Counted from the first letter of the stretch, positions 40,114 through 62,860 are shown. The stretch: DNA of 64,000 nt from Bacteroidales bacterium (GCA_965230395.1 CBDDKV010000002.1:1920947-1984946); one strand, 5' to 3'. Translations and numbers: made by a program. Notes: generated by a model not told the origin, from the sequence alone.

Positions 40114-40197
40114 GCATGCTAACACTTAGAATATAATAAATCATTCATTGCCCAAAAAAGTCCCGGCAAGGACTCAAAATGATTGATTATATTCGTT
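40114..40197 (+). repeat. attC-like site, short type (cassette 1)
   Basis: GCATGCTAAC (40114-40123) is the exact reverse complement of the cassette start GTTAGCATGC (38809-38818). The arms GAATATAATAAATCATT and AATGATTGATTATATTC match at 16/17. The central hairpin is AGTCC-CGGCAA-GGACT. The site ends in G|TT at 40195-40197. Confidence 0.75.
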
Positions 40198-40230
40198 GTT
40201 GAACGGAACCGGGAGAAACGGGCCAACACT

Positions 40231-40371
40231 ATGGGGATTGATATTGGGACGTTTGGTATTTTAGGTATCATCATCATCATCGTATGGGCAAAAAATCAAG
40301 GTTTAATTAATAAACCATTAAAAAAACAGGGACAAATCAGCTTCAATGTATTAATTAACAGTTGGTTTTGA
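40231..40371 (+). CDS. cassette 2: possible 46-aa single-TM peptide
   Basis: The ATG at 40231 lies after the G|TT junction, whereas the track start at 40183 lies inside the attC-like site. The sequence is MGIDIGTFGILGIIIIIVWAK.... It is a small ORF with weak support. Confidence 0.3.
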   Translation: MGIDIGTFGILGIIIIIVWAKNQGLINKPLKKQGQISFNVLINSWF

Positions 40372-40426
40372 CCTGTTATGTTGTCAACAGGACGTACCTT
40401 TCCCATTATGCCTATGGAGGCATTTG

Positions 40427-40876
40427 TTACATAGGGATTGGTTGGCCTGTTTGTGTGGGTATAACATCAGGGCTTCCCCTGATAAGAGGTCTAAAAGAGG
40501 CAATACGCCGCATGGTGCCACATTTGCATTTAGGGCATTGATCGTGGGGGTGGCCAAAAAGCAAAACAAACAATTCCTGCCAGGGAATACCTTTTTTAGA
40601 TTCGGGCGCAACGGCACCCAAAGCTTCCCGGATGATAGCCAAACAGCTACCTTTCTTACAAGAACTGAAAATTCCATAGTGTCGGACCTTCATAAATCCG
40701 GGCGGAAGAATGTGCATTGACAGCCTTCGGAGGAATTCAAAGAAAGACAGGGACATTACGCCAATCCTGGAGTTTTTATAGTTGGGCCACGAAAAGTATA
40801 CGTTATCACCATCAATACCTTTAATGCGATGGTTACTAATAGCCACCCTGTGTGAGTACCTGGACAAATAATCCAA
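40427..40876 (-). pseudogene. IS91-family (Y2 HUH) transposase, C-terminal fragment only
   Basis: It reads YLSRYSHRVAISNHRIKGIDGDNVYFSW...FEFLRRLSMHILPPGFMKVRHYGIFSS and ends at its native stop. The N-terminal ~60 percent, including the HUH and zinc-binding parts, is absent. Confidence 0.75.
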
Positions 40877-41276
40877 ATATCCTGGAGTTTTCTAATAAGT
40901 ATTCATAAGTCCATAATCCATAAAACTTTTTGCCCGGAATTTTTGGCTGGATCAGCGATATTTTCATGGACGGTCAAGGCTAAATGTTTACACAATAAAA
41001 ATACTTGATTAAGATAATTGCACCCTTCGGTGGTTTAGCTTGCAAAAACATATAAGGCGTGCCCCATCCAACCGTATAAGTAATAACCCCTACTATATGT
41101 TTTATACAAAAAAAGCCGGAAAGCCAAATGGACCGTTCCTTTACAACCATTTTTATAACTTTATGCTAAAAATAGGGTGAAAAGCATACAACGTTATGTA
41201 AAATTCATTGCAAAACATTGTAATGCAACAAATTTTACACTTGTTATTGTACACATGCTAAAAAAATATACTGCAT

Positions 41277-42224
41277 ATGAAAAAACACATAATGATTTTT
41301 ATAATTGCTCTTTTTGCACTAAGCTGTTCATCAGATGGACAAAAGAGTAAAACTGACACTAAAGAGCAGATTAAGAAATACCAAGTGGATTCAAAACAAA
41401 ATAGGGAGACCATTTCTGATTCTGATGCGATTTCTCTAAAATGGAAACTTAAACCAGATGAGACAATTGGTTATAAGACCGCAATGGAGCAAGTTGAGAG
41501 TTCTGATTTTGAAATTGACTTCGGTGACGACAAAAATATGCCCAAAGAGGAGTTTAAAGATATATTCGATGGACTAAAAAAGGAATTCGAAAAAACTTCA
41601 TTTATTACGACAATGCAATGGAATGATAGAGGGAATATTGAGACAAAAATGTTTGCTGAAGGCTTCAATGACGAAGAAACCAAACCTATTGACCCTAAAA
41701 ATTTCAATCCTGCGAGCATGATGAAAGGAGTTATGCTAAGAGGAGAAATAAATGAAAGTGGACAAATTGAAAGTTTCTATTTAAAAAACGCACAGAAAAA
41801 TTTGATAGCTATGTATTTTGAGTTACCAAACAAGCCAGTAAAAATTGGTGATACATGGAATTTAAATGTAAGCTTTCTACAATATGACCAATCTTTTGTT
41901 TGCAAATCAGCTGACAGGACAAATGATGTTGAGTTGATAGATGTACTCAAGGACAAAAATGATACGATTGTAGTTTTTAAATATAATATCTATGAGTCAG
42001 CAAGTGGATACATGAAAAACCCTATGACTAATGAAAAGATTGAGAGTTCACTATCAATGAGCTTTAATGGTATTGCTGAATTTTCAGTAAGCAAAGGGCG
42101 TTGGATAAATTATAACGGAATTATAGAAACGATTCAGAAAGGAATGATGTCTGGGAGTAGCAAACAGAAACTTGCATTGATACCATTCGATAATCTGACA
42201 AAAGAAATGATAAACATTGAATAA
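41277..42224 (+). CDS. cassette 3: lipoprotein, unknown function
   Basis: It has a lipoprotein signal (MKKHIMIFIIALFALSC). The cassette start GTTATTGTACAC (41243-41254) is complementary to GTGTACAACAA (42231-42241) just after the stop. Confidence 0.75.
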   Translation: MKKHIMIFIIALFALSCSSDGQKSKTDTKEQIKKYQVDSKQNRETISDSDAISLKWKLKPDETIGYKTAMEQVESSDFEIDFGDDKNMPKEEFKDIFDGLKKEFEKTSFITTMQWNDRGNIETKMFAEGFNDEETKPIDPKNFNPASMMKGVMLRGEINESGQIESFYLKNAQKNLIAMYFELPNKPVKIGDTWNLNVSFLQYDQSFVCKSADRTNDVELIDVLKDKNDTIVVFKYNIYESASGYMKNPMTNEKIESSLSMSFNGIAEFSVSKGRWINYNGIIETIQKGMMSGSSKQKLALIPFDNLTKEMINIE

Positions 42225-42230
42225 CAGCCA

Positions 42231-42295
42231 GTGTACAACAAAGAACTAAGGTAAAAACCAAGTAAATTTCCCATAATTTTTCTTTTCGAACTACC
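42231..42295 (+). repeat. left part of attC-like site of cassette 3 (interrupted by IS110-family element)
   Basis: The first box is GTGTACAAC. The left arm CTAAGGTAAAAACCAAGTAAATTTC is the imperfect complement of the right arm GAAATCACTTATGTTTTCTTATA at 43686-43708. The right edge is approximate. Confidence 0.55.
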
Positions 42296-42330
42296 TGAGT
42301 TTTTGGGGAGGCAGATTCGAAAAGGAAAAA

Positions 42331-43299
42331 TTATTTTGTTGGTACTACTGACCTGAACTCTGGACTATACAGTACACCTGATTTGGCAATTGCCAAGGAC
42401 TGAGACAAGAGTTTATTGGGCACAGCAATCAGTGCAAGCTTTTTAGGCTTACCTTTATTCACCAGCCTTTCATACAGATCTCTAAATTGTTGATTGCTAT
42501 GGCAAGCAGTAAAGCTGCACATAAATAAGTGATTTCGAATTAAAGGATTACCTCTTTTTGATATTCTGGGTTTTCCCCTTACACTTGTTCCAGATGCCGT
42601 GATGACTGGTGAAAGGCCAAAGAAGGCCGATAGCTGTCCGGAGCTTTCAAATGATTGAAAACCATTGGTACAAACAATGAGCATAATCGCTGTCTTTTTA
42701 CCAATCCCTGGGATTGGTAAAAGATTGGTCAATAGCTCTTTTTCGTGCTCTTTTATTTGCTCTTCCAGCTCCTTTTCAAGTAACTTAATCTCGGAGTTGA
42801 TTTGACGAATTTGGCGTTTTAAAGATGTTATAATCCGTCCTTTGCCCCCTTTGTCAATAAAGCTATGTAGTTTGTTTTTAAGGGCGGTGTTTTGCTTAAA
42901 AAACAAACTTATTGTCGTATGTAAGTCTTTACAGTCATTAATATATTTAGGTAATGGTTTCCATCGGCTAATACTCTGCTCTTGGGCATATTTTACTATC
43001 ATTTTGGCGTCACTTTTATCCGTTTTATTATGCTGTAATTTCATTTGGATAAAGCGTTTAATTACCAATGGATTTATAACAGGGACATTAACCTGGTTCT
43101 CATGAAGGAATACAGCAAGCCGATGATAATAACTTCCGGAGTATTCCATAACACACCAGCTATTTGAATCAATTAGCAATAAGAACTCATAAAATCCATC
43201 TGAGGTATTCTTGAACTTTCTATGTCCCAGCTTAATACTCCAAACATCAAAAACCTTTTTTGAAATGTCAATACCAATAAAATGTGTATTTTTATTCAT
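42331..43299 (-). CDS. IS110-family (DEDD) transposase
   Basis: It reads MNKNTHFIGIDISKKVFDV...MEYSGSYYHRLA (RuvC-like DEDD N-domain) and has a C-terminal Transposase_20-type domain (IPGIGKKTAIMLI...SGTSVRGKPRISKRGNPLIRNHLFMC). The start is set at the ATG at 43299. Confidence 0.9.
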   Translation of the reverse strand: MNKNTHFIGIDISKKVFDVWSIKLGHRKFKNTSDGFYEFLLLIDSNSWCVMEYSGSYYHRLAVFLHENQVNVPVINPLVIKRFIQMKLQHNKTDKSDAKMIVKYAQEQSISRWKPLPKYINDCKDLHTTISLFFKQNTALKNKLHSFIDKGGKGRIITSLKRQIRQINSEIKLLEKELEEQIKEHEKELLTNLLPIPGIGKKTAIMLIVCTNGFQSFESSGQLSAFFGLSPVITASGTSVRGKPRISKRGNPLIRNHLFMCSFTACHSNQQFRDLYERLVNKGKPKKLALIAVPNKLLSQSLAIAKSGVLYSPEFRSVVPTK

Positions 43300-43341
43300 G
43301 ATAATTAATTTGTAAAGAACGATGCTACTTTGATATAGCAA

Positions 43342-43522
43342 CCTAAAAACAGGCTCTGCCCCCCAGAGAACTAATCGTATTTAAGTAGCGAAAGAGTGGT
43401 AATTTTCATTGTTGACTAGCTTTATGCTTTATGTATAAATTAATCTTGTCCCACTCTTCCGTTCTTTTAATTTTATTATGAAAATAAGAAATTGCAAACT
43501 TAGGATGTATAAAAAACATAAG
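43342..43522 (-). ncRNA. candidate IS110 bridge (guide) RNA region in the left end of IS #1
   Basis: This is the noncoding left end upstream of the transposase. It has the stem AGAGTGG / CCACTCT around a ~50-nt loop and the hairpin CTCTG-GGGGG-CAGAG. The relic copy at 63.6 kb changes TAA to TGG on one side and gains CCA on the other, lengthening the same stem. Assignment as a bridge RNA is by analogy only. Confidence 0.35.
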
Positions 43523-43639
43523 TGGATCAGTGGTTTACGGAAAGTTGGCACATTTACTCAGCTCCGCCAACCTTTAGCTCACGACCAAAGGGAGTAAATC
43601 TGCGATTTGACGGGTTGTTTTAAAAAAGTAAATTTGTGT

Positions 43640-43714
43640 CAAAACGCAAATTTGGCTCAGTGCAAATTGACAGGTATGAGCTTCGAAATCACTTATGTTT
43701 TCTTATATTCAACA
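43640..43714 (+). repeat. right part of long-type attC-like site (S4)
   Basis: TTGACAGGTATGAGCTTCGAAATCACTTATGTTTTCTTATATTCAAC follows the family consensus TTGATAGGT..GAGCTTCGAAAT + ~24 nt. About 115 nt between the IS end and this arm are unresolved. Confidence 0.55.
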
Positions 43715-43773
43715 TTTTACGCCATATAAACGGCCATGGTGCAATAAAATAAACTGATTTAGAGGAAAAATTA

Positions 43774-44352: not shown

Positions 44353-44376
44353 ACAAATATCTTAGGAGATAAGACC

Positions 44377-44667: not shown

Positions 44668-44670
44668 TAC

Positions 44671-44803
44671 GGCGTACACGCGGTCATAAAACATTACGCG
44701 GATAGTGCTAATTTTAAACTAAATAACAATTATTAAACAGTCGAGTAGCTTGATAGGTAAGAGCTTCGAAATGTGCAATCTTTCTTATTGCCATACGTTA
44801 GGG
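44671..44803 (+). repeat. attC-like site, long type (S1)
   Basis: The first box GGCGTACAC is complementary to the cassette-4 start ATTTTACGCC (43714-43723). The left arm is GCGGTCATAAAACATTACGCGGATAGTGC. The right arm is TTGATAGGTAAGAGCTTCGAAATGTGCAATCTTTCTTATTGCCATAC. The junction G|TTAGG is at 44797. Confidence 0.75.
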
Positions 44804-46533
44804 CACATCCCCCACATCAGGAGCACTTCCAAAATAGATAGAAAATAAAGGTATCTATTTCTCCAGAGCTGATTAAATCCTTAAGCTAACGGGATCGTAC
44901 CTACGATTAAAAGTTCTGCTAAATTTGGGCTGACTCTATGCAAGGCCGATTCTAAAATGGTACTATGCCTTTGGTAAAGTCCGAGCGTCATTCTTGTTGA
45001 AATGTAAAAGCCCCAGAAGTAGTGATTCCGAGGCTTGTTGATAATTCCAGTGGTGGTGTCAAAATTTTGGCAACCCCGTTCATGATAATTCTCAATTCAA
45101 AGATACATTTCCTTAGGGTCATTTTGTAGAACTTTTAAAACAAAAAAATGGCAAAGAAGAAAAAGATGGAAATGGAAGTAATAAACACCAATGCAGCAGG
45201 TATTGATGTTGGAAGCCGTTCGCATTATGTAGCAGTGGGACAATCATTGGAAGATGTGAAAGAATTTGGAGTTTATGCTGAAGGTTTAGTTGAGTTATGT
45301 AAGTGGTTGCTTTCATATGGCATTACATCGGTAGCAATGGAATCTACAGGAGATTATTGGCAAAATCTATATACAGAACTTTTAAAGCATGGTTTGGAGG
45401 TGGCCTTGTGCAATGGCAAGTTCACCAAGCATGCCAAAGGGAAAAAGACAGATGTTAAGGATTGTAGGCATATTCAAAAGCTCCATGCTTTAGGCCTTTT
45501 GGATAGTAGCTTTCTGCCTGATGAGACAACAGAGAAATTGCGGACATATTGCCGTCAAAGAAGTGGCATGATAGACCGTTCAGCCACAGCTTCACGTAAA
45601 ATGCAGAAATACTTGAAATTACTGAATTTTAGATTAGATGTAGTAGTGAAAGATGTATGTGGGCTTACAGGGTTGAAAATAATTGAAGATATATGCAAAG
45701 GTAATTTAGACCCGTATTCATTGGCGGAACATAGGCATTATAATTGCCGCAAGCCTAAAGAAGAAATAGCAAAAGCATTACATGGTAATAATAGGGAAGA
45801 TTTCTTATTTGGATTAAAGCAAGAGTATGAGGCATACCAGTTTTATCAAAAGAAGATAAAATCTTGTGACAAAATGATAGAGCAATTTGTTAAATCGGAG
45901 CTAAAGAAATCGCCAGGGAAACTTAAGCTTAAAACAACAGATAAGCCATATAAAAGAATCAATAAAAATGCCCCGGAAATAAAAAACTTTAACCAGATCG
46001 CATTTCAATATTTCGGGGGTATCGATTTAATGGCAATTGAAGGGGTAAGCCATGGAACAGTTCTGGCAATAATGAGCGAGATAGGACAAAATAGTTTTGA
46101 TAAATTCCCCTCATCAAAAGAATTTGTATCGTGGTTGCGTTTAGCTCCCAACAATAAAATATCGGGTGGAAAAGTATTGAGTAATAGGATACCAAAGGGC
46201 AGTAATAGGTTGAAAATTGCATTAAGGCAAGCAGCAAATGCTATTGGTAATTTGAAAGACACACATTTATCAGATTTTTTTAAACGGGTTGCATTTCGGA
46301 AAGGAAGACAAGCAGCAGTAAGTGCAACTGCACGAAAATTAGGTGTTATAATTTGGACAATGGTAACCAAAAAAGTACCTTACAATCCACCAGCAGAATA
46401 CCTGTTCCTTGACCAAAAAAGGAAGATGGGAATGGCAAAAAGAATAAAGAAACAAATGGCTAAATTTGACATAAAACCAGAAGAAATTGGAATTGGCAAC
46501 TCACTGACACCCAACTACAATTTTTGACGTTAG
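44802..46533 (+). mobile_element. IS110-family insertion sequence #2 inserted at the G|TT core of site S1
   Basis: ACGTTAG occurs at both ends (44795-44801 and 46527-46533). About 345 nt of structured noncoding left end precede the transposase gene, whose stop codon abuts the right-hand ACGTTAG. Confidence 0.8.
45148..46527 (+). CDS. IS110-family (DEDD) transposase
   Basis: It reads AAGIDVGSRSHYVAV...MESTGDYWQNLY (DEDD N-domain) and has the C-terminal IEGVSHGTVLAIMSEIG...SGGKVLSNRIPKGSNRLKIALRQAA. It is only distantly related to the transposase of IS #1. Confidence 0.9.
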   Translation: MAKKKKMEMEVINTNAAGIDVGSRSHYVAVGQSLEDVKEFGVYAEGLVELCKWLLSYGITSVAMESTGDYWQNLYTELLKHGLEVALCNGKFTKHAKGKKTDVKDCRHIQKLHALGLLDSSFLPDETTEKLRTYCRQRSGMIDRSATASRKMQKYLKLLNFRLDVVVKDVCGLTGLKIIEDICKGNLDPYSLAEHRHYNCRKPKEEIAKALHGNNREDFLFGLKQEYEAYQFYQKKIKSCDKMIEQFVKSELKKSPGKLKLKTTDKPYKRINKNAPEIKNFNQIAFQYFGGIDLMAIEGVSHGTVLAIMSEIGQNSFDKFPSSKEFVSWLRLAPNNKISGGKVLSNRIPKGSNRLKIALRQAANAIGNLKDTHLSDFFKRVAFRKGRQAAVSATARKLGVIIWTMVTKKVPYNPPAEYLFLDQKRKMGMAKRIKKQMAKFDIKPEEIGIGNSLTPNYNF

Positions 46534-46554
46534 TCATGATAAAAACATCGTACT

Positions 46555-48288: not shown

Positions 48289-48752
48289 CCCCGCTCGTGA
48301 GGGCTTGTAGCCTTCACGAATAACGAAACAACAAAGAGCCATACTAATAAAGTGAGGCATTTTGGTTTAATAAGGCAACAAACTGGCATATTGTATCTGC
48401 TATTGTTTTGCAAAAACAACAAAATGTGAGGAAAATATTGATTTTATAGTTATAAACATGAGTGGTGCAACCACTCATGAGCGAAGTAACTAAAAGTAGG
48501 AAATTTCTAGTTTTGAAATGTTTTTTATTTAGAATAAGCCTGTCCAGCTTTATAGTCCCCGCTCGTGAGGGCTTGTAGTTTTCACGAATAACGAAACAAC
48601 AAAGAGCCATACCTATAAAATGTGGCTTTGGTTTAATAAGGTAACAAACCGGCAGATTGTATCTGCTATTGTTTTTCAAAAACAACAAAATGCGAGGAAA
48701 ATATTAATTTTATAGTTATAAACATGAGTGGTGCAACCACTCATGAGCGAAG
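48289..48752 (+). repeat. two tandem ~198-bp noncoding units, period 268 bp
   Basis: Units 48289-48486 and 48557-48752 are near-identical. Each starts CGCTCGTGAG and ends CTCATGAGCG (inverted termini). Each contains the hairpins CGTGAGGGC/GCCTTCACG, TTGTTTT..AAAACAA and CATGAGTGG-TGCAA-CCACTCATG. Confidence 0.8.
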
Positions 48753-49985: not shown

Positions 49986-50449
49986 CAATAAATAGGACTA
50001 AGAGCGGTCTGCACGTCCCGGTTGAACTGCATCCAGGTTACAACAACCCTATTCGTATTTTACTAAACGATATTGTTGTAGGAAGATTGACCTGGGCAAC
50101 GTAAGTGGGTTGCTGAGTGGAACAGAAACCGGGACTTCAGACTGAAGCATTTCAAAAAGCAGGTTCGAAGCAATACTTTCCGGCCTTATAAACTAACATT
50201 AAACAGGAGTTGCAAAAAAATAACGCAAATAAGGCAGACCGGTTTTGAAGGAAATAAAAAAAACATACATTAGGTACGTTTAATAAAACACAGAAGGCAT
50301 CAACAGCCGATTATGAGCATTTGCCAATTTATTACAAATGCTAAGTGAGCTTATGTGTTAGATTACCATAAGACATTAACAAAATTCTACTTTGAAATGT
50401 ATAGAAGAAATATCATAACCTTTTTTAAAAGTTATGCTATTTTGCTGTT
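49986..50449 (+). repeat. noncoding module A (recombinase-relic-like + attI-like terminus)
   Basis: By eye, about nine in ten positions are identical to 60843-61316 and, over its 3' 347 nt, to 58986-59332. It ends in ...CCTTTTTTAAAAGTTATGCTATTTTGCTG|TTAGGCAC. Confidence 0.85.
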
Positions 50450-50531
50450 AGGCACAAGCGGAGGAGCGACTGTACAAATAATGATTCTAAACCGATAAAA
50501 AAGACAGAATAACATGATAGCCAACGCGCAA

Positions 50532-50656: not shown

Positions 50657-53600
50657 ATGGAATCGGACAAAAAATTGCACCCTGATAGAGAAATGAAAAA
50701 TAAAATGGATTTAATATCTCACAAACAAAAGGCAGTAATCCTGATAATAACATTGCTTTTTTCACTCAATTCTTACAGCCAGAAATTAATAGAAAGTCGA
50801 CAAACGAGTTATTACACCTACATTTATAAGATAACTAAAAAGGAAGCTGAAAAGATTTACAAAAAAGATATTTGGAAAGTTGACACCTCCTTTTTTCACA
50901 CATTGGTTGATTCATTTCCAACAGATAGTCAATATTATGGAAGACTTCAACAAGGACACTATTTAAAAACCTTTGCTGAAAAAGAGAAACAAAAACTTTC
51001 AATAACAACTATTCAGGATTTTGATGTTTTTATTTTTAACAACAACACTGATTTATGTGTACAGGTGTTTGATTTAAAAGGAAACCTTATAGAGGATGCT
51101 GAAGTTACTATTCGACTGAAAAACCTTCGTTTCAATAAAAAAACACAGTCCTACCTTGATAAAAAATCAAATCAAAAAGGATTGTTAAAGGTTACATATA
51201 AAGGTTTTACAGCCTATTACAATCTATCCAGACAATATAACAACTCTTTTATTAAGCGAGGAACACGAAAGGTTGTTTATGGAACTCCTATAAAATATGT
51301 TTGGATGCCAGTAAACTTTGTAATATTTCTTCCAATAGATGGAGTAAAATCAATTGTAAAAGGTTGGCCTCAAGGCACTATTTATAGAACCAAGAATTTC
51401 TTTGTTAAGTCCTTCAACAAAATTGCTTGTATGTTCGATGATTACTATTGCGATTATTACACAAATAAAAAATTCAGGAATAAGCATACTGGTTACATGG
51501 TATTCAATAAACCGAAGTACATGCCCGGTGATACGGTGAAATTTAAAGCCTATTTATTAACGAAAAAGGGAAATCCAATAGATGAAAATGTTCATGTTAT
51601 TTTGCAAAACAGCAGAAAAGATATTGAATTAACCGAATTAGCGCCATATAGAAGTGGAGGTTATAATTACGAATTTTATTTGCATGATTCACTTCAGCTA
51701 CAACTTGACCGGAATTATACAATTCGCATAGAACTTAACGATAGAAAAGAATATATAAACGGTTCTTTTAAATATGAAGATTACGAATTATCAAAGAATC
51801 AACTTTCATTGAGAGTTGATAAAAAGGAACATTTTCGAAATAAAAAAATTACTCTTTATGCCAAAGGTACAGATGAAAATGATTTAAACCTGATGGATGC
51901 ACGGATTGAAGTATTATTGACTCCAAAATCAATAAATAAATATTTTGAGAACCATGTGTTCATTCCTGATACTTTACTCTTCCATAAAAAGAAGCTTAAT
52001 CCGACCGATGAAACCGAAATAGTATTATCAGATTCAACGTTTCCTAAAGCAAACTTCGAATATACAATAACTGTTAGGTTGCTAACTTCTGACAATGAAT
52101 CTATTTCCGAAAATGAAGAGATTTCATACTTCTACGAATCAGAAAAATTCGATATTAAAGTAAAAACTGATTCCATCCATTTTGAATATTTAAAAAATGG
52201 CGAAAAAGAATCAAAAGAGGTAACTATAAATTCACAAGACAATTTTGGAAATAAAACTCCAGTTTATAATGGGATTACACCCTGTAGCATCGAATTAAAC
52301 CCTTACTTTTCTTCTTATACAATTCAAACAGATTCAATTTCAGAAACCATAAATATTTCAGAAGAATCATCTTTAATACAATGCTTTTCAGAAAGAACAT
52401 CAGATTCAGTTTACATTGTTGTTAATAATCCTCGTAAGATTCCATTTATCTACAATATTTACAAAAAGAATAGCCAACAAGCATCTGGCTACACCGATTC
52501 TTTGGATATTCGTAAAAAAACATCTTCCAAGCAAAATTATTTTGTGTCAATTCGTTACTTATGGGGCGGTCAAGTTAAGGAAGAAAATTTCAGAATACCT
52601 TTAATTGACAAAAAGCTTAATATTTCCGTTACTCAACCTAAAATTGTTTACCCCGGACAAAAATCAAGAATTGACATTCTGGTTACAGATACCGAAGGAA
52701 AGCCAGTTGAAGGAGTTGATTTAACCGCATTTTCATTAACAAAGAAGTTTGATTATACTGCTCCTGAACTGTCATATCTGGGGAAATCAAAGAAAAACAA
52801 AAGCGTCATAAATAATTTCAATTTTAAAAACTTCAATCTAAATACCCATTCTGGTTTGCAGTTAGACTATGATGCATGGAAAATTATAGCAGGTATTGAT
52901 TCTATTGAATATTATAGATTTATTTATCCGAAAAACTCCATTTATTGTTTTGAATATAAAACAATTGATTCAATAACACAGTTTGCTCCTTTTGTTATTT
53001 CAGATGGTGCAATTCAACCAGTTCATGTTATTTATGTGGATAATAAGCCAGTTTATTTTAGTTGGTCTACAAATACCCGTCCCTATTCATTTAATATTGA
53101 TAGTGGCTATCATCAAATAAAACTCAGAACTAATTTCAGGGAAATTACAATTGACAGTTTGCATTTTGAAGAAGGTAAAAAGTTAATTCTTAGCTTAGAG
53201 CAGGATGCAAAAAATGCTAATATTAAAATAAATAAGGTTGAAGCAAAACTAAGTGATTTTGAAAAACGACTTCTTTATAAATATATCGTTCCTTATAGGG
53301 ATAATTTCGGAGAACAATATGCTTATATAGAACAAAACGAAAATATTCAATTACTTACTCCTGAATCAAAATATCAAAGAAATAACTATGCCGGGCCTCT
53401 GGTTGGTAATTTAACTTTTCAACTTGTAGACAGTTTTTCGACTACAATTAATCATGAACCGTTTTTTGAATATGAGTTTTTACCTGAACTTTTAAAAATG
53501 CGTAGTATTGATTCTAAAAGATTTCCGGAATACTTATATAGCTATAAAGCAAACAATACTTTAAATGATGCTGTGCTAACCAAACAAGTTGTAGAAAAAC

Positions 53601-56600
53601 AATGGAGGGATTATTTAGACTCAAAAAGATATCTTACTGCCAGATACAGATATCCTAATTCTACAAGTCATGGAGCTGGTAAACTATTAATTAATTTTAA
53701 GAGGAATGATGAGCTAATTAAAGATATTCCTTTGAATGTTTTGATTTTTAGATATGATAATCATCAATTTCTGAGAGTTTATCCGGGCAATAGTTCATTT
53801 ATACATGAATTGCAAAAAGGTTATCACAAATTAATATTCTTTTATTTAGGAGCGAAATACCATATTGAAGATTCAATACTTATTCAACCGAATGGATTGA
53901 ACTATTATGAGTTTGAACAACCAGTTTCATATAAGAAAGATACTTTTAGTCTGTACGTAAGCAATGTTATTGAAGAAATGCTTTTCAAACCAAATCCATA
54001 TTATGAAAATGAAGAAAAAGAATTGAAGCAAATTTATAATATGTATCAGCAACAGTTTAAATATACTGGTGTTGGTGATATTGTTGAAGGGTATGTTTAT
54101 GAAGAGGAAGCTGGTGTACCTCTACCTGGTGTTACTGTTCTAATAAAAGGCACAACATATGGAACAGTTACAAATTTAGATGGATATTATTCAATTAAAG
54201 TACCACGCGGAAATAGTGTTTTAGAGTTTTCTTTTATAGGTTATGAAAGTCAAGAAGTAATTGTTAATGGTCAAAATACAATTAATGTTACTTTTACTCC
54301 AGAACTTCTTATGATGCAGGAACTTCAAGAAGTCGTTGTTGTTGGCTATGGAACAACAAGGAGAGCTGATTTAACAGCATCAATTACAACTGTAACTACA
54401 AGTAGTCTATTAGGAGGTATGCCCGGAGTAAGTGGGAATGTTTCGGAAAGTTTGCAAGGGAGAGTTGCTGGTGTTTCTATTTCATCCAATAGCGGAGCTC
54501 CTGGGAGTGGTGTAGAAATAAGAATAAGAGGTGCTTCAACTATTGAGTTTGATAAACCCCCTCTTTATATCATCAATGGAAATGTTTATACTGGAGATAT
54601 TTCTGAGTTAGACCCAGCAATTATTCAAAATATTGAAATTTTAAAAGATGCAAGTGCCACAGCAATTTACGGTTCAAGAGGGGCAAATGGGGTTGTTATA
54701 ATTGAAACGGAAGCTGGAGCTTTTAAAACTACTGAAGCTTCACTTAAAGGTGCTGAATATGATGAGACATTTTTGGAAGCGGCAAGCCAGTCAAGCTCTA
54801 TTCGCGATAATTTTTCAGATTATGCATTTTGGCAACCAAATTTAATAACGGATAAAGAAGGGAAAACAGGATTTGATGTCATTTTCCCCGATGACGTTAC
54901 CAGTTGGGAAACATTCTATTTTGCTATGAATGATAATAGACAGTCTGGACAATCAGAGGGACTTATAAAATCTTATAAACCACTTATGGCTCAACTTGCA
55001 GTTCCCAGATTTTTGGTGCAAAGTGATACTTCATATGCAATTGGTAAAGTTCTAAACTACACTCCCGATTCAGTTAAAGTTGAAACAAAATTTGAAGTTG
55101 ATGGTAAAGAAATGCTAAATACTTCAAGATTTTGTAATAACTCATTGATTGATACGCTATCATTTTTTGCTTCGACTGATTCTGTAGAATTAAAATATTT
55201 TCTTGAGACTAATGACAATTATTTTGATGGTGAACAAAGAAACATTCCCGTTTTTTCAAAAGGACTTGAAACAACTAAAGGTAATTTTTATGTGCTTGAT
55301 AAAGATACAACTATTCAGTTGCGGTTTGATTCTACATTAGGTACTGTAAATCTTTATGCCTGGGCAGATATTCTTGATGTTATTGAAGATGAAATTAGCC
55401 ATTTGATTAAATATAAATATTCTTGTAATGAACAAATTGCATCAAAATTGAAAGCTCTGCTGGCAGAAAAGAATATTGCATATTACAAGGGTGAAAAATT
55501 CAAAAATGATAATGAGGTTGAAAAACTAATCAGGTTATTGAAGAAAAATCAAAAAGATAATGGTTTATGGGGTTGGTGGAAAAATTCAGATGAAAGTTTG
55601 TGGATTAGTTTACACATATTAGAAGCCATTACACATGCTGAACAACTTGGTTATAGAACCTCGATAAATAAAAATCAGATTACGGAATTACTAATATGGG
55701 AGTTAGAAAGTTCTCGTGATTTCTATGAGAAAATACGAATACTAAAAATTCTGAATCTTTTAGGGTCTCAAATAAATAATCAACCCTATATTACTGATTT
55801 GGAAAGAACTAAGAATATTTCATTAAATGGGCTACTTAGTATAATTGAGTTGAAACAACAATGTGGTATTGATTACAATTTAGATACGCTGGATTATTAT
55901 AAAAAAACAACCTTATTTGGAAACACTTACTTTTCAGATGAAACTAAGGCGACTAACTTATTAAATAACGATATTCAAAATTCATTACTTGCATATAAAA
56001 TTATTAAAGCCGATTCAATAACAGATAGTCAAGGATTAAACGAGCTTCAAAATTATTTTCTTGAAAACAGAAAAAATGGATATTGGAGAAACACTTTTGA
56101 ATCAGCCCAAATCATAGAAACAATATTGCCCGATTTATTAAAAGGTCAATCTGAATTAAGTAAACCTGAATTGTCATTAAAAGGCGATATTAACAGGACT
56201 ATTTCTGAATTTCCTTTTGAAATGAATATTAATTCAACTCAAAAGATTGAAGTGTCAAAAACAGGAGACTTTCCAGTTTATTTAACATCCTACCAAAGAT
56301 ATTGGGATAATAATCCAACATTAAAAATGGAGGACTTTGAAATTTCTACAAGTATTAATAATAAAGCAACAACCATTTTAACTGCTGGTCAAGAGACTAA
56401 ACTAATCACAAAAGTAACTGTTAAAAAAGACGCTGAATATGTAATGATAAACATTCCAATTCCTGGAGGCTGTTCGTATACTGATAAGAAGAATAATTTA
56501 CGAAATGAATCACATAGAGAATATTTTAAGAATGAAACAACAATCTTCTGTGATTATTTATCTAAGGGTGAATATACTTTTGAGATTGAATTGATAACTA

Positions 56601-56701
56601 GGTATTCCGGGACATATACAATTAATCCTGCAAAGATTGAGTTAATGTACTTCCCAACTTTTAATGCAAATAATGAGATAAAAACGATTAAGATAAAATG
56701 A
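50657..56701 (+). CDS. giant secreted alpha-2-macroglobulin-like protein with embedded CarboxypepD_reg + TonB-plug segment
   Basis: 2014 aa. A signal peptide follows the alternative ATG at 50693. An MG2-like block is present (KYMPGDTVKFKAYLLTKKGNP). A SusC-type segment spans ~54070-54710 (GVTVLIKGTTYGTVTNLDGYYSIKV; VVVGYGTTRRADLTASITTV; LQGRVAGVSI; IEILKDASATAIYGSRGANGVVIIET). An A2M block follows (FWQPNLITDKEGKTGFDVIFPDDVTSWETFYFAM). The thioester-type motif YKYSCNEQIASKL has its Cys codon at 55424. Confidence 0.85.
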   Translation: MESDKKLHPDREMKNKMDLISHKQKAVILIITLLFSLNSYSQKLIESRQTSYYTYIYKITKKEAEKIYKKDIWKVDTSFFHTLVDSFPTDSQYYGRLQQGHYLKTFAEKEKQKLSITTIQDFDVFIFNNNTDLCVQVFDLKGNLIEDAEVTIRLKNLRFNKKTQSYLDKKSNQKGLLKVTYKGFTAYYNLSRQYNNSFIKRGTRKVVYGTPIKYVWMPVNFVIFLPIDGVKSIVKGWPQGTIYRTKNFFVKSFNKIACMFDDYYCDYYTNKKFRNKHTGYMVFNKPKYMPGDTVKFKAYLLTKKGNPIDENVHVILQNSRKDIELTELAPYRSGGYNYEFYLHDSLQLQLDRNYTIRIELNDRKEYINGSFKYEDYELSKNQLSLRVDKKEHFRNKKITLYAKGTDENDLNLMDARIEVLLTPKSINKYFENHVFIPDTLLFHKKKLNPTDETEIVLSDSTFPKANFEYTITVRLLTSDNESISENEEISYFYESEKFDIKVKTDSIHFEYLKNGEKESKEVTINSQDNFGNKTPVYNGITPCSIELNPYFSSYTIQTDSISETINISEESSLIQCFSERTSDSVYIVVNNPRKIPFIYNIYKKNSQQASGYTDSLDIRKKTSSKQNYFVSIRYLWGGQVKEENFRIPLIDKKLNISVTQPKIVYPGQKSRIDILVTDTEGKPVEGVDLTAFSLTKKFDYTAPELSYLGKSKKNKSVINNFNFKNFNLNTHSGLQLDYDAWKIIAGIDSIEYYRFIYPKNSIYCFEYKTIDSITQFAPFVISDGAIQPVHVIYVDNKPVYFSWSTNTRPYSFNIDSGYHQIKLRTNFREITIDSLHFEEGKKLILSLEQDAKNANIKINKVEAKLSDFEKRLLYKYIVPYRDNFGEQYAYIEQNENIQLLTPESKYQRNNYAGPLVGNLTFQLVDSFSTTINHEPFFEYEFLPELLKMRSIDSKRFPEYLYSYKANNTLNDAVLTKQVVEKQWRDYLDSKRYLTARYRYPNSTSHGAGKLLINFKRNDELIKDIPLNVLIFRYDNHQFLRVYPGNSSFIHELQKGYHKLIFFYLGAKYHIEDSILIQPNGLNYYEFEQPVSYKKDTFSLYVSNVIEEMLFKPNPYYENEEKELKQIYNMYQQQFKYTGVGDIVEGYVYEEEAGVPLPGVTVLIKGTTYGTVTNLDGYYSIKVPRGNSVLEFSFIGYESQEVIVNGQNTINVTFTPELLMMQELQEVVVVGYGTTRRADLTASITTVTTSSLLGGMPGVSGNVSESLQGRVAGVSISSNSGAPGSGVEIRIRGASTIEFDKPPLYIINGNVYTGDISELDPAIIQNIEILKDASATAIYGSRGANGVVIIETEAGAFKTTEASLKGAEYDETFLEAASQSSSIRDNFSDYAFWQPNLITDKEGKTGFDVIFPDDVTSWETFYFAMNDNRQSGQSEGLIKSYKPLMAQLAVPRFLVQSDTSYAIGKVLNYTPDSVKVETKFEVDGKEMLNTSRFCNNSLIDTLSFFASTDSVELKYFLETNDNYFDGEQRNIPVFSKGLETTKGNFYVLDKDTTIQLRFDSTLGTVNLYAWADILDVIEDEISHLIKYKYSCNEQIASKLKALLAEKNIAYYKGEKFKNDNEVEKLIRLLKKNQKDNGLWGWWKNSDESLWISLHILEAITHAEQLGYRTSINKNQITELLIWELESSRDFYEKIRILKILNLLGSQINNQPYITDLERTKNISLNGLLSIIELKQQCGIDYNLDTLDYYKKTTLFGNTYFSDETKATNLLNNDIQNSLLAYKIIKADSITDSQGLNELQNYFLENRKNGYWRNTFESAQIIETILPDLLKGQSELSKPELSLKGDINRTISEFPFEMNINSTQKIEVSKTGDFPVYLTSYQRYWDNNPTLKMEDFEISTSINNKATTILTAGQETKLITKVTVKKDAEYVMINIPIPGGCSYTDKKNNLRNESHREYFKNETTIFCDYLSKGEYTFEIELITRYSGTYTINPAKIELMYFPTFNANNEIKTIKIK

Positions 56702-56866: not shown

Positions 56867-57002
56867 GTGCCTGACAGGCGGTCATAAAACATAGTGCGGA
56901 AAGTGGTATATTTGAGCAACATAACATTTAATCAACGGCAGCAACGGTCTGATAAGTCGGTGCTTCGAAACGCGCTACGTTTCATACCGCCAAACGTAGT
57001 AA
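56867..57002 (+). repeat. attC-like site, long type (S2)
   Basis: The first box GTGCCTGAC pairs with the cassette start GTTAGGCAC (50447-50455) at 8/9 plus one G-T. The arms are GGCGGTCATAAAACATAGTGCG and CGCGCTACGTTTCATACCGCC. The motif TGATAAGTCGGTGCTTCGAAAC is present. The junction G|TAG is at 56996. Confidence 0.75.
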
Positions 57003-57031
57003 CGCATTTTGGCAGACCGTGAAATAATAAA

Positions 57032-57778: not shown

Positions 57779-57784
57779 AAAACA

Positions 57785-57918
57785 ACGCTACAACAAAAAA
57801 TATACGTAATGCGGGGTGATATGATTAAATTTAAGCTTAATACATTTATTAAACCAAATATTGGTTTGATAGTTTGGAGCTTTGAATTTCCTCGCTACTT
57901 ATATTCAAGTAGTTATCA
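57785..57918 (+). repeat. attC-like site, long type (S5)
   Basis: The left arm is CTACAACAAAAAATATACGTAATGCGGGG and the right arm is CCTCGCTACTTATATTCAAGTAG. The centre ACATTTATTAAACCAAATATTGGTTTGATAGTTTGGAGCTTTGAAT is homologous to S2 and S3. The junction G|TTATC is at 57912. Confidence 0.7.
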
Positions 57919-57951
57919 GTAAGCTAAATTGAGTGATAAAATGAAATATGT

Positions 57952-58866: not shown

Positions 58867-58872
58867 AACCGC

Positions 58873-58991
58873 ACACCTGATTTGGCAATTGCCAAGGACT
58901 GGGACAAGAGTTTATTGGTCACAGCAATCAGTGCAAGTTTTTTGTCTGAAGCAAAGCGGGTTTAATTCTTTTAGCCAATAAGTCATAAGTG
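58873..58991 (-). mobile_element. internally deleted relic of IS110-family element #1
   Basis: 58873-58943 matches 42373-42443, the transposase 3' coding region that includes the palindrome TTGGCAATTGCCAA. The relic ends in ...CATAAG|TGG, the same terminus and junction as at 43517-43525. It abuts the nitrilase stop codon, so that cassette has no attC-like site. Confidence 0.55.
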
Positions 58992-59332
58992 GGTTGCTGA
59001 GTGGAACAAAAACCGGAACTTCAGGCTGAAGCATTTCAAAAAGCAGGTTCGAAGCAAAACTTTCCGGCTTTATAAACTAACATTAAACAGGAGTTGCAAA
59101 AAATAACGCAAACAGGGCTGGCCGGTTTTGAAGGAAATAAAAAAATATATACATTAGGTACGTTTAATAAAACACAGAAGGCATCAACAGCTGAATATAA
59201 GCATTTGCCAATTTATTACAAAAGCCTGGAGAGCTTATGTGACAGATTACCATAGATATTAACAAAATTCTACTTTGAAATGTATAGAAGAAATATCATT
59301 GCCTTTTTTAAAAGTTATGCTATTTTGTTGTT
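58986..59332 (+). repeat. noncoding module B (5'-truncated copy)
   Basis: It is homologous to module A from 50102 onward. It ends in ...TTTTAAAAGTTATGCTATTTTGTTG|TTGTGCTGC. Confidence 0.85.
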
Positions 59333-59389
59333 GTGCTGCATGCGAAGACATAGGCTCGTGACTATTAAACCGATTGATTATAAAAATTA

Positions 59390-59881: not shown

Positions 59882-59898
59882 AAAAGTAAAAAGCACTA

Positions 59899-60030
59899 CA
59901 GCACACACAATGTGTATAATTCATAAGGGGTTCAGTAGTTTGCGAACAATATCACTCGCATCAATTTTTGGTAGTAATTTGATAGGTTTAAAGCTCGCAA
60001 TCCCTTACGAAATCAAAAACTCAACTTGGT
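59899..60030 (+). repeat. attC-like site, long type (S6)
   Basis: The first box CAGCACACAC is complementary to the cassette start GTTGTGCTG (59330-59338) with a one-nt bulge. The left arm ATTCATAAGGGGTT pairs with AATCCCTTACGAAAT. The motif TTTGATAGGTTTAAAGCTCGCAAT is present. The junction lies near 60025. Confidence 0.65.
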
Positions 60031-60047
60031 AACAGATTACCTCAGCA

Positions 60048-60238
60048 ATGAAACCAATCAATAAAGATTAATATTGTGCATGTTGTGGTTATGACACATA
60101 TGATAAATTAGTATATTACAATTGTCCAATTTGTTTTTGGGAGGATGATCCATTCCAATTGAGGACGATGATTTTACCAATGGTGCAAATAATGTTTCAT
60201 TAAAGACAGGTCAAGAGAATTTTGAGAGATTTGATTAG
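60048..60238 (+). pseudogene. CPCC-family cysteine-rich protein, disrupted
   Basis: It reads MKPINKD-stop(60069)-YCACCGYDTYDKLVYYNCPICFWEDDPFQL. After a 1-nt frameshift near 60160 it continues EDDDFTNGANNVSLKTGQENFERFD-stop. Confidence 0.6.
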
Positions 60239-60341
60239 GAATTGCAGAAAACCAAACAACGAGGACAATAGAAAACCAAATTGGACTGATTGAAATAATT
60301 AAAGAATAACTTCAAGGACCAATTATTAATAAATAGATTTC

Positions 60342-60836
60342 ATGTTTAAGATATTTAAAAAGCAAAAAAAAGACAAGCAATTTGATAGTTTCGATAAACC
60401 AAGATTTGATGAGAAGATTCAATCAGAACAGTTGATTTACTCAAGGCCATCTGATGATTTCTACAATGATTTATTGGAGTTATTAATCCCAAGCTTTTTT
60501 AATGAATCAAATCCAATTCATAAAAAGTTTGATGAGGAGTTTAGAAGTAATATCTCTGAATTATCCATTCTATTTAATGATATATTAGAAAGTGGACTCC
60601 AAACTGATACAATTGATAAGTTTTATTTGAGAATAGAGCATCTAGCCAAAAAGGAAAGAGAGGTCCCATTTATAACTTCACAAACATTATTGTACTGGTA
60701 TCATTTTATTCAAAATATTAAGATTGAGGTAAGTTCAAGAATTGGCGATAATGCCATAAACAAGTGTGATATTCTATCTGATAAGATTAAGCAATTGTTT
60801 GAGGATTTTAGAAAAAAAAACAGCCATAAAAAATAA
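60342..60836 (+). CDS. hypothetical protein
   Basis: 164 aa, predicted soluble and helical, with no motif recognised. Confidence 0.55.
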   Translation: MFKIFKKQKKDKQFDSFDKPRFDEKIQSEQLIYSRPSDDFYNDLLELLIPSFFNESNPIHKKFDEEFRSNISELSILFNDILESGLQTDTIDKFYLRIEHLAKKEREVPFITSQTLLYWYHFIQNIKIEVSSRIGDNAINKCDILSDKIKQLFEDFRKKNSHKK

Positions 60837-60842
60837 CGTGTG

Positions 60843-61316
60843 CCAATGAATAAGACTACGAGCGGTCGGCACGGCCCGGCGATGCGTCCCGGTTGAACTG
60901 CATCCAGGTTACTACAACCCTATTCGTATTTTACTAAACGATATTGTTGCAGGAAGATTGACCTGGGCAACGTAAGTGGGTTGCTGAGTGGAACAGAAAC
61001 CGGGACTTCAGGCTGAAGCATTTCAAAAAGCAGGTTCGAAGCAAAACTTCCCGGCCTTATAAACTAACATTAAACAGGAGTTGCAAAATAACGCAAATAG
61101 GGCTGACCGGTTTTGAAGGAAATAAAAAAAACATACATTAGGTACGTTTAATAAAACACAGAAGGCATCAACAACCGAATATGAGCGTTTGCCAATTTAT
61201 TACAAAAGCCTGGTGAGCTTATGTGTCAGATTACCATAGATGTTAACAAAATTCTACTTTGAAATGTATTGAAGAAATATCATTACCTTTTTTAAAAGTT
61301 ATGCTATTGGGTTGTT
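60843..61316 (+). repeat. noncoding module C (full-length copy)
   Basis: It is collinear with module A and has a 12-nt insertion near its 5' end. It ends in ...TTTTAAAAGTTATGCTATTGGGTTG|TTGCAGC. Confidence 0.85.
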
Positions 61317-61419
61317 GCAGCTAATGCCAAGAAAGAGAGCAGTGCGGAGATAAACACCACTATTCTCATTAAATACGCGGGGAATAATTTGTATATTTAC
61401 CGCATAATGATAAAAGTTT

Positions 61420-62529
61420 ATGGCAAAATATATCTATGAATATGACAACTGGCCAGAATTCACCTGGGATAACAAGAGGGTTGTTGTGACCTTAGGGAAA
61501 GTTCGTCATCTGCAAGGAAAGATTTTAGGACAAATGAGTGCACTTGGTTTTTCAATAAAAGAGGAAACAATTTTATCTGCTTTGACACTTGATGTTTTGA
61601 AATCTTCTGAGATAGAAGGTGAATTTCTAAATCAAGAACAAGTTCGCTCTTCAATAGCAAGAAGACTTGGTTTGGGTTATGCAGGCATTGTTCATGTTGA
61701 CAGGAATGTGGAAGGAGTTGTAGAAATGATGCTTGATGCAACACAAAGATATGATGCAATTCTTGACCATGAACGAATTTTTGGCTGGCATGCAGCCTTA
61801 TTTCCTACAGGTTGGAGTGGAATGCATCGGATTGACACAGGATGTTATCGTGATGGAGAAATGCAAGTTGTATCAGGTCCGATGGGAAAAGAAAAAATAC
61901 ATTTTCAAGCTCCTTCAGCTAAAGTGGTTCAAAAGGAAATGGACGCGTTTTTAAACTGGCTTAACAAAGAAACTGATATAGATGGTGTTCTAAAAGCAGC
62001 AATTGCACACTTTTGGTTTATAATAATCCACCCTTTCGATGATGGAAATGGACGTATTGCCAGAGCAATATCAGACATGTTACTTGCTCGTTCAGAGGAA
62101 AGTTCTCAGAGATTTTATAGCTTATCGGACCAGGTTCTAATTGAGAAAAAAAAATATTATGAGATATTGCAAAAAGTTCAGCATAGCTCTTGTGATATAA
62201 CTGATTGGTTGGATTGGTTTTTAAATTGTTTGTTTCGTGCATTGGAGAACACAGAAGAAACATTGAAACGAGTGCTGAAAAAAGCAGACTTTTGGGATAA
62301 AAACAAAGAGACAATTCTGAATAGTAGGCAAAGATTAATATTGAACAAATTATTTGATGGATTTGATGGCAAATTAAAATCATCTAAATGGGCTAAGATT
62401 ACTAAATGTTCAGCTGATACTGCACTAAGAGACATAAAAGATTTGATTGATAAAGGAATTTTAAAACAAGAAGAATCAGGTGGCCGAAGCACAAATTACG
62501 AATTAACGGAAGAATGGAGAATGCACTAG
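61420..62529 (+). CDS. Fic-family protein
   Basis: The Fic motif HPFDDGNGRIARA is present, preceded by the long N-terminal helical domain common in ~370-aa Fic proteins. A C-terminal winged-helix-like tail follows. Confidence 0.9.
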   Translation: MAKYIYEYDNWPEFTWDNKRVVVTLGKVRHLQGKILGQMSALGFSIKEETILSALTLDVLKSSEIEGEFLNQEQVRSSIARRLGLGYAGIVHVDRNVEGVVEMMLDATQRYDAILDHERIFGWHAALFPTGWSGMHRIDTGCYRDGEMQVVSGPMGKEKIHFQAPSAKVVQKEMDAFLNWLNKETDIDGVLKAAIAHFWFIIIHPFDDGNGRIARAISDMLLARSEESSQRFYSLSDQVLIEKKKYYEILQKVQHSSCDITDWLDWFLNCLFRALENTEETLKRVLKKADFWDKNKETILNSRQRLILNKLFDGFDGKLKSSKWAKITKCSADTALRDIKDLIDKGILKQEESGGRSTNYELTEEWRMH

Positions 62530-62707
62530 TGTCAAGTCAATTCTCGATTGACGGATGGGGTTACTCCCTATCGTCCGTGAGACCGCTAACGTTAAGTTCC
62601 TTCGTCGTGCCTCCTCTGAATGACGTTATAGCGATATTGAGGGACGAAAGAGAAGCAACCGGGGCCATTTTAATGGCAGGGCTCACCTGCCAACGCATGA
62701 CTGAACT

Positions 62708-62860
62708 GACTGCAATAAAGCACGAAACGCTAATGCGCGGTCATAAAACATTGCGCGGATAGTGCTATATTTGTATGAAATAACATTTAATCAACAGCTT
62801 AGCGGGTTGATAAGTTTGTGCTTTGAAATGCGCAATGTTTCATGCCGCAGGCCGTTGTGG
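62708..62860 (+). repeat. attC-like site, long type (S3)
   Basis: The arms GCGGTCATAAAACATTGCGC and GCGCAATGTTTCATGCCGC form a near-perfect inverted repeat. The central hairpin is ATCAAC...GTTGAT and the motif is TTGATAAGTTTGTGCTTTGAAAT. The junction G|TTGTGG is at 62854. A possible first box CTGCAA at 62709 matches the cassette start TTGCAG, but this match is weak. Confidence 0.7.

Follow-up and report, generated by a model that had tools for sequence, protein, structure and literature searches.

A 64,000-nt stretch of DNA from a Bacteroidales bacterium (GCA_965230395.1, CBDDKV010000002.1:1920947-1984946; hereafter the window, with positions counted from its first letter) contains a set of ~130-nt elements which are probably attC-type cassette recombination sites, served by a tyrosine recombinase related to IntI and Xer whose gene stands at the head of the arrays. 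We put the probability of this reading at roughly 0.8. It is carried by the anatomy of the sites, the covariation of their arms, their orientation, a signature at the cassette boundaries and the position of the recombinase gene. Ordinary chromosomal genes fill the ~38 kb before the array and suggest a Bacteroidota-type chromosome of low GC content, and from ~38.8 kb to the end of the window there is a run of + strand open reading frames (ORFs), mostly small, among which the sites are found.

All six of the ~130-nt sites proposed in an earlier, sequence-only reading of the window are present on the + strand and lie far above chance. The architecture given there was also correct: from 5' to 3', each site has a variable first box, a left arm, a small central hairpin, the core TTGATAGGTnnGAGCTTCGAAAT, a complementary right arm and GTT. 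The core pattern has four matches in the window at no more than three mismatches, compared with none expected. An nhmmer profile built solely from the copies of other genomes recovered 44675-44803, 56869-57000, 57789-57905 and 62729-62859, together with the right half (43661-43716) of a site that is interrupted by an insertion. A covariance model, run without filters, scored the five full window copies, which were among its training sequences, at 69-117 bits and recovered the half copy too; it found no credible family copy in positions 1-38000. The site at 44671-44803 (nhmmer E 2e-25; covariance model 103 bits) has a mutated first box, with TAC for AAC, and its GTT lies at 44797-44799. At 56867-57002 (E 3e-24; 117 bits) GAC replaces AAC in the first box and GTA replaces GTT, and 7 of 10 positions agree between its tail and the following site's first box. 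The member at 57785-57918 (E 7e-14; 95 bits) has another arm subtype, AATATACGTAATGCGGGG / CCTCGCTACTTATATT. A divergent member at 59899-60030 (covariance model 69 bits) carries the core variant AAGCTCGCAAT / TTGATAGGTTTAAAGCTCGCAAT, which recurs in other genomes, and the same subtype was aligned from three loci elsewhere (L088, L043 and L006). The last site, 62708-62860 (E 8e-24; 115 bits; bottom-strand fold z -2.5), carries ~20 added bases that separate its first box from the left arm, and its stem is the best preserved of all.

The description of these sites as homogeneous was overstated, as the five full copies share only 40-73% pairwise identity. Each of them is closer to some copy in another genome (63-85% identity), so that the analogy with the repeats of Vibrio cholerae (VCR) fails, and the array is a mixture of several site lineages common to different genomes. 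An exact scan with a 19-base core pattern, using one representative genome per species, gave at least 114 stretches, which were studied as 8-kb loci (L numbers). The matches listed are nearly all from Bacteroidota, comprising Bacteroidales, Marinilabiliales (Saccharicrinis, Carboxylicivirga), Flavobacteriales, Cytophagales, Saprospiraceae and Lentimicrobium; Ignavibacteriales are also among them, together with a few short contigs in metagenome-assembled genomes (MAGs) that are otherwise labelled. The last group (L005, L024, L038, L052 and L068, in MAGs labelled Nanoarchaeota, Atribacteria, Clostridia, Bacilli and Kuenenia) consists of genuine copies that are near-identical to Bacteroidota copies, and binning errors are more likely than true hosts. 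Complete MAG chromosomes are also among the matches, for example OY787449, OY781463 and OZ244968. Judging from these comparisons, the family is best described as site lineages common to Bacteroidota and Ignavibacteriales-labelled genomes and not as a genome-specific homogenized repeat.

Among the matches listed there are up to five copies per 8 kb, always in the order ORF or ORFs then element and on one strand. A same-strand ORF of at least 60 residues directly precedes 88 of the 117 full copies in other genomes, with a median gap of 6 nt, compared with 17 of 102 in the reverse-orientation control; the window sites are likewise each preceded by a same-strand ORF. In all 26 of the loci with several copies, every copy lies on one strand. 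Viral contigs are all but free of the family (one real copy), and among plasmid records it occurs only in Persicobacter replicons. The sequence-only reading had noted that genome-wide dispersal outside cassettes would make the element a generic repetitive extragenic palindrome (REP) or miniature inverted-repeat transposable element (MITE). The adjacency to ORFs, the single orientation and the near-absence from viral contigs argue against a dispersed repeat of this type, as does the lack of any credible copy in the first 38 kb of the window.

The structure of the sites was assessed from an alignment of 77 sequences, with 500 shuffles and a control in which the partner arm was slid. Pairing between the two arms of ~20 nt is seen in 82.8% of cells, compared with 57.3% in the shuffled alignments, none of which reached the observed value, and 28-39% with slid partners. 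Compensatory change is strong: 410 cells are changed on both sides against 133 in the shuffles, and RNAalifold reports compensatory changes in 14 of 15 pairs. There are several arm subtypes, for example CGCAATATACGTAAGCCGGGG / CCCGGCCTCCGCATATTGCC and GCGGTCATAAAACATTGCGCGG / GCGCAACGTTTCATACCGCC; a TATA/CATA segment is conserved within the stem, and AAC and GTT each occur in ~90% or more of the 77 copies. At two positions of the stem the left arm has a fixed A and the right arm a C, in 70 and 68 of the 77 copies. These A·C mismatches of the coding strand are G·T pairs on the opposite strand, which appears to mark the bottom strand as the one that folds. Standard pairs amount to 91.7% on the bottom strand versus 82.8% on the top strand, and outside the two A·C positions the strand bias is absent. 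An added C in the left arm, equivalent to a bulged G on the bottom strand, is present in 14 of the 77 copies. When all site classes of the Persicobacter array described below are considered, there are 43 left-A/right-C mismatches compared with four of the mirror type.

The cassette boundaries carry a signature of their own. In 13 of 30 consecutive pairs of sites the 6 nt after GTT are perfectly reverse-complementary to the first box of the next site, while the match to the first box of the same site averages 2.1 of the 6 tested positions and that of random pairs 1.9 of 6. The pairs that fail are mostly far enough apart to conceal an undetected site. The complementarity, which sets 7 nt plus AAC against GTT plus 7 nt, always stops at 10 bp. 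In the Persicobacter replicon pPP2 there are 219 such boundary pairs inside the array, compared with 13 outside it and 10-23 in shuffles. Within the window the pair 38809/40114 agrees at 10 of 10 positions and the later boundaries at 6-8 of 8-10 positions; the AAC and GTT triplets are mutated at several of these sites (TAC, GAC, GTA and ATT), which fits an inactive, decaying array. In our view this pattern is that of integron cassettes, with crossover at GTT, as far as can be judged from a comparison of sequences, the resolution of which does not extend to the exact crossover position within the triplet.

A different interpretation is that the elements are mainly structured RNAs, located in 3' or 5' untranslated regions or acting as antisense RNA from the bottom strand, and that the cassette arrangement is secondary. 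A precedent is the 'DUF1874 motif' of Weinberg et al. [quoted passage not shown] Our family resembles it by description, having several stems, a conserved internal loop and centre and a G·U-compatible asymmetry on one strand only, but the paper on that motif presents neither a boundary signature nor a recombinase (PMC5737381). An RNA function does not account for the complementarity that links the bases after GTT to the next element's first box instead of the element's own, nor does it account for the attI-like site and the head recombinase described below. Furthermore, a transcript of the sense strand would hold two A·C mismatches per stem, and the window has no match in Rfam either at the gathering score or at E values up to 5. 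We therefore consider it highly unlikely that RNA is the principal role of these elements.

The arrays of L013, L111 and L113 have at their head an intact recombinase of 340-390 residues that runs parallel to the cassettes, and in each a GTT site follows the stop codon of the recombinase with a tail that matches the first cassette. Among 80 metagenome loci fetched with the head recombinase proteins, family sites are present in ten, always downstream of the recombinase and on the same strand, with none upstream. In L132 and L140 the recombinase gene is followed by seven-cassette chains with sites of 53-68 nt. A hairpin and GTT site lying no more than 300 nt (50-290 nt) after the stop codon, with its tail matched downstream, was found in 14 of the 42 intact-recombinase loci with adequate sequence downstream, versus one in the control. 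A site next to the integrase which takes the first cassette, as expected of attI, is thus present, but on the 3' side of the gene. A further metagenome contig, of 982 kb, shows the recombinase followed by a same-strand Gp49/HTH (helix-turn-helix) toxin-antitoxin pair and small ORFs (L196, 11172-17070); a ~130-nt site near 13852 of this locus keeps the arms and an AGTGCT loop without the TTGATAGG core, which indicates that there are more long site classes.

The system is also found in a cultured organism, Persicobacter psychrovividus NBRC 101262. Its 404-kb secondary replicon pPP2 (NZ_AP025294.1) contains a ~100-kb array at ~302.6-404.6 kb (loci L202-L205) with ~130 small ORFs in one direction, which are mostly hypothetical and include many duplicated cassettes. 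The array has 25 family sites, all on one strand, and its sites as a whole fall into length classes of ~77, 130, 140 and 230 nt. It is headed by an intact recombinase gene of 379 codons (complement 635..404088) that lies across the record origin and, for this reason, has no entry in the gene table.

The array in the window begins with the remains of a recombinase of the same family. The recombinases of L013, L111, L038 and L113 have a single match there by tblastn, a pseudogene at 38404-38732 on the + strand (53-65% identity, E 1e-15 to 1e-21). It keeps the C-terminal ~110 residues (~275-383), with HxLRH, LLGH and the region of the catalytic tyrosine, but is 5'-truncated, with the N-terminal ~270 residues gone, and has a frameshift near 38555. 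The ~530 nt ahead of the array show DNA similarity to the 3' ends of the recombinase genes in L115, L122, L179, L180, L190 and L192, and it was similarity of this kind that revealed the pseudogene; inspection of all window ORFs by eye and by motif gave no integron integrase, and the sequence-only reading had not picked it up. Some 75 nt separate the end of the pseudogene from the first crossover. An attI-like site at 38770-38811 (+) is made up of a small hairpin (CATTACC...GTTATG), a spacer and the crossover GTT at 38809-38811, where the first cassette begins. The sequence GTTAGCATGC at 38809-38818 is the exact reverse complement, at 10 of 10 positions, of GCATGCTAAC at 40114-40123, which is the first box of an 84-bp attC-like site (40114-40197, +; an imperfect hairpin with z -3.9 when the top strand is folded and -2.8 for the bottom strand). 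This site, which closes cassette 1 (ORF 38847-40106), was rightly set apart as a separate, short class. A second short attC-like site of 88 nt at 41173-41260 (+; covariance model 19.3 bits, E 0.03) precedes ORF 41277-42224; its GTT is mutated to ATT and its tail ATTGTACAC matches the next first box at 8 of 10 positions by eye. The end of the attI-like site recurs at 50408-50449 (+; repeat family D3, blastn) and at 59291-59332 and 61275-61316. These copies diverge straight after GTT, and when their tails are compared by eye with the first box of the family site that follows, 8 of 10, 8 of 10 and 6 of 8 positions agree.

The head recombinases contain the Pfam domains Phage_int_SAM_4 and Phage_integrase. 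Their best solved relative is VchIntIA (IntI4; PDB entry 2a3v), with E values of 4e-45 by sequence and 1e-18 by predicted fold. Archaeal XerA follows close behind, and the similarity to XerA and to IntI is about equal. As in IntI, the two domains are those of the integrase, the gene adjoins the first cassette and an attI-like site, and NCBI calls some members 'site-specific tyrosine recombinase/integron integrase'. Unlike IntI, the enzyme lacks the IntI-specific insertion of ~40 residues. IntI4 residues 205-246 are skipped in the alignment, TIGR02249 matches in two stretches that omit profile positions ~180-240 and reaches 243 bits compared with a cut-off of 265, and the Persicobacter enzyme likewise aligns without the insertion. 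Two other differences are that the gene runs parallel to the cassettes, with the attI-like site past its 3' end and not before its 5' end, and that there is an extra N-terminal domain of ~70 residues followed by a linker. This domain is predicted to fold as β-β-α-β-β-α-β with a predicted local distance difference test score (pLDDT) of ~90; it belongs to no Pfam family, and a fold search with the whole recombinase model gave matches to the catalytic core only and none to the N-terminal domain. The recombinase family numbers at least 7992 proteins at E <= 1e-40 from several phyla, which go by names such as XerD, site-specific integrase and 'integron integrase'.

Integrons are seen as largely proteobacterial, and it is the IntI-specific domain that defines an integron integrase. 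Since the integrase here lacks this defining domain, the array is integron-like and is not a canonical integron. The proposal of a sedentary chromosomal integron therefore holds in that attC-like sites of at least two classes form a chromosomal, sedentary and decaying array, but not in the strict sense of the term, as the sole head recombinase of the window is a pseudogene of a cassette-parallel family without the IntI domain and with an extra N-terminal domain.

We also considered whether the array might be an ordinary integron remnant, that is, a cluster of attC sites lacking an integron integrase (CALIN). In that case the canonical IntI would be encoded elsewhere or have been lost, and the insertion-less enzyme next to the array would be an unrelated recombinase, Xer-like or belonging to a mobile element. 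The logic of the sites is exactly that of classical attC, and other tyrosine recombinases (300 residues, paired with IS91-like transposases) do adjoin sites. No canonical IntI was found, however, in the window, among the 114 genome loci or within the examined ~116 kb of pPP2. The insertion-less recombinase consistently stands first in the array and on its strand, with a crossover site just after its stop codon that matches the first cassette. The published surveys can be read either way. Reviews list Bacteroidota among the phyla with detected integrons (PMC8618304), but the IntegronFinder 2.0 survey found almost nothing in Bacteroidetes, reporting only In0 elements earlier and one complete integron, in Salinibacter (PMC9024848), and in a 2024 preprint Bacteroidota serve as an example of clades in which no integrons had earlier been found. 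On balance we regard an ordinary integron remnant as unlikely.

Several points weigh against our interpretation of the elements as cassette recombination sites served by the head recombinase. The evidence is comparative throughout. The recombinase lacks the IntI-specific insertion, by which the extrahelical bases of folded attC sites are held, and the platform as a whole is negative for the IntI domain. This insertion is reported to be necessary for integron-integrase activity (study cited in PMC9668308). A canonical IntI could be present elsewhere, as the sequences read were 8-kb loci and one replicon. The boundary signature is seen in only about one third of the recombinase loci with adequate downstream sequence, and in L038 the recombinase lies inside an array and not at its head. 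The asymmetry between G·T and A·C is also expected of a structured RNA transcribed from the bottom strand. Finally, the centre is strongly conserved in sequence, in contrast to classical attC.

In the mechanism that we propose, the mobile unit would begin with the TT of one GTT, span one or a few ORFs and end with the G of the GTT in the next site. In the excised circle, the first box (7 nt plus AAC) and the last box (GTT plus 7 nt) would be base-paired to form an R box of 10 bp, followed by a short asymmetric spacer, a ~20-bp stem with two non-Watson-Crick positions and the large conserved centre. The bottom strand, which is antisense to the cassette ORFs, folds best and is the probable substrate. 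The catalyst would most likely be the IntI/Xer-related tyrosine recombinase of the array head, encoded in the same orientation as the cassettes, and its own attI-like site would consist of a small hairpin, ~10 nt and GTT located 50-290 nt past the stop codon. We infer that the head recombinase catalyses the reaction on single-stranded bottom-strand DNA, with crossover between G and TT.

Such sites would share much with integron attC sites, including VCR. They lie at the 3' ends of cassette ORFs in one-directional arrays, and they are imperfect palindromes with inverse core boxes that end in AAC and start with GTT. The apparent crossover is at GTT, which makes the last box a hybrid with the next cassette; compensatory changes preserve the structure, and the two strands are non-equivalent. 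A length of ~130 nt with a long central part is also seen in long attC sites and VCR. The differences are that the R box is of 10 bp here versus 7 in attC, that two fixed A·C/G·T positions replace or supplement the bulged bases (the bulge being confined to the 14 copies noted above) and that sequence conservation across Bacteroidota orders and in Ignavibacteriales-labelled MAGs is seen in the ~45-nt centre and the TATA/CATA segment. Unlike VCR, the copies within an array are heterogeneous and their lineages span genomes.

The core pattern TTGAYAGGnnnnGCTTYGAAAT and the TATA/CATA segment show ~90% conservation across genomes of different orders. Poor sequence conservation outside the core boxes alongside a conserved structure, as in attC sites, is not what is observed here. 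The earlier remark that the conserved centre has no counterpart in classical attC is supported. In individual folds the centre forms several stems, in which TATCAA pairs with TTGATA of the core and ATTTGAA pairs with TTCGAAAT. Apart from these subtype-specific pairings, covariation gave no consensus inner helix in the centre; the signals there are weak and include an apparent direct-repeat correlation between columns 82 and 126. The centre is missing from minimal sites of ~60 nt that belong to the same chains and retain the boxes, the TATA/CATA stem and the A·C positions, as it is from the 84-nt and 88-nt sites of the window; the boundary logic therefore does not depend on it. That it is conserved across orders nevertheless points to a function. 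Our conjecture is that it serves as a folding-control or accessory-recognition module, and one could speculate that it is recognized by the extra N-terminal domain of the recombinase. By eye, a consensus resembling that of integration host factor fits one subtype and not the others and was dropped, and no Bacteroidetes-type promoter motif was seen in the core.

The remaining one of the six sites is interrupted. The earlier reading was right that this site is split, but its coordinates (42231 and 43640-43714) become 42231-42242 and 43505-43714 when intact long-centre copies are used as the reference. The first box (CAGTGTACAAC-A; 42231-42242, +) was placed by comparison with intact copies in L037, L041, L050, L064, L067, L111 and L113, and the rest of the site (43505-43714, +) comprises the left arm, ~85 nt of extra centre, the core, the right arm and a degenerate GTT. 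This long-centre subtype measures ~215 nt and is intact in eight other places. Between the first box and the left arm sits a 1.26-kb insertion sequence (IS) of the IS110 family (42243-43504, - strand; Pfam DEDD_Tnp_IS110 and Transposase_20; transposase 42331-43341), with junctions inferred from the intact copies. A second IS110-family element at 44802-46533 (+; identified with Pfam; transposase 45148-46527) is inserted in the last box directly after GTTAG, and ACGTTAG is found at both junctions. Fragments of the first IS110 lie at 58868-58943 and 63540-63714, where two further sites would be expected. The location of the transposase gene 42331-43341 just 5' of the core had suggested the core itself as a target of the IS110 or of its bridge RNA, but this was rejected, as the long-centre copies show that the sequence to the left of the core belongs to the site.

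IS110-family elements use guide RNAs, and the sites may be programmed targets of these elements. An IS1111-attC group within the family targets integron attC sites. The two IS110 elements of the window are likewise found at precise positions within sites and are passengers, not parts of them. As these positions differ, the elements appear to be parasites of the site and not its cause. Taken together, the dead recombinase gene, the mutated boxes and the invasion by IS elements indicate that the window array is a fossil.

An IS91-like transposase and a tyrosine recombinase of ~300 residues recur beside sites in L003, L012, L016, L022, L025, L040, L092 and L105. In L003, L012, L025, L092 and L105 this module ends with a hairpin and TTTAGTTCAAC fused to the first box, and it appears to be a second mobile element for which the sites are the target. 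In the window, a C-terminal fragment of an IS91-type (Y2) transposase is found at 40427-40876 on the - strand. These fused ends, together with the two IS110s and several IS remnants in or at sites, could suggest that the family is a selfish repeat of the REP/MITE type, or a landing pad or by-product of the adjacent IS110 and IS91-type elements. We find this scarcely credible: the 38 kb of housekeeping DNA in the window are free of copies, copies always point the same way as the ORFs and occur one per intergenic gap, most have no IS nearby, and the two IS110s use different insertion positions.

Other features of the window array were noted. A ~450-bp non-coding repeat occurs three times (50014-50469, 58898-59353 and 60885-61337), in places where a site would be expected, with a partial copy at 38770-38829. 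It opens with a short site of ~55 nt (e.g. TTACAACAAC...TTGTTGTAGG near 50036-50090) and closes with the attI-like sequence, and no copies were found in the other loci. It may be an ORF-less cassette, possibly with a promoter. The attI-like copy at 50408-50449 ends one of these repeats and opens a cassette-like unit that contains a single ORF of 2014 residues (50657-56701); this unit, which is bounded by the attI-like copy and the site at 56867, is far above the usual size of an integron cassette. Two tandem non-coding units of ~266 bp (48289-48486 and 48557-48752), 90-95% identical and with strong hairpins (CGTGAGGGCTTGTAGCCTTCACG, CATGAGTGGTGCAACCACTCATG), contain the box CACGAATAAC, which matches at 8 of 10 positions the first box expected for the cassette after the second IS110.

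Our literature search found no paper describing this cassette system. A broader proposal, which we advance tentatively and at slightly less than even odds, is that the sites represent a large unrecognized branch of integrons, in which cassette capture is common in Bacteroidota and probably occurs in other phyla, with an insertion-less relative of IntI, a 10-bp R box, hairpins marked by G·T pairs and a centre that acts as a recognition or cassette-genesis module.

If our interpretation is correct, cassette arrays would be common in Bacteroidota, including one of ~100 kb in a cultured Persicobacter, and standard tools would miss such arrays, as the signature domain is missing from their integrase. 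The reservoir of mobile cassettes would be larger than is now known. The system would also provide a natural test of which IntI features are truly needed to recombine folded single-stranded sites, and the Persicobacter strain opens it to experiment. The family would further represent a sequence-conserved, multi-stem form of attC, the centre of which could bear on the origin of attC sites and of the cassettes themselves.

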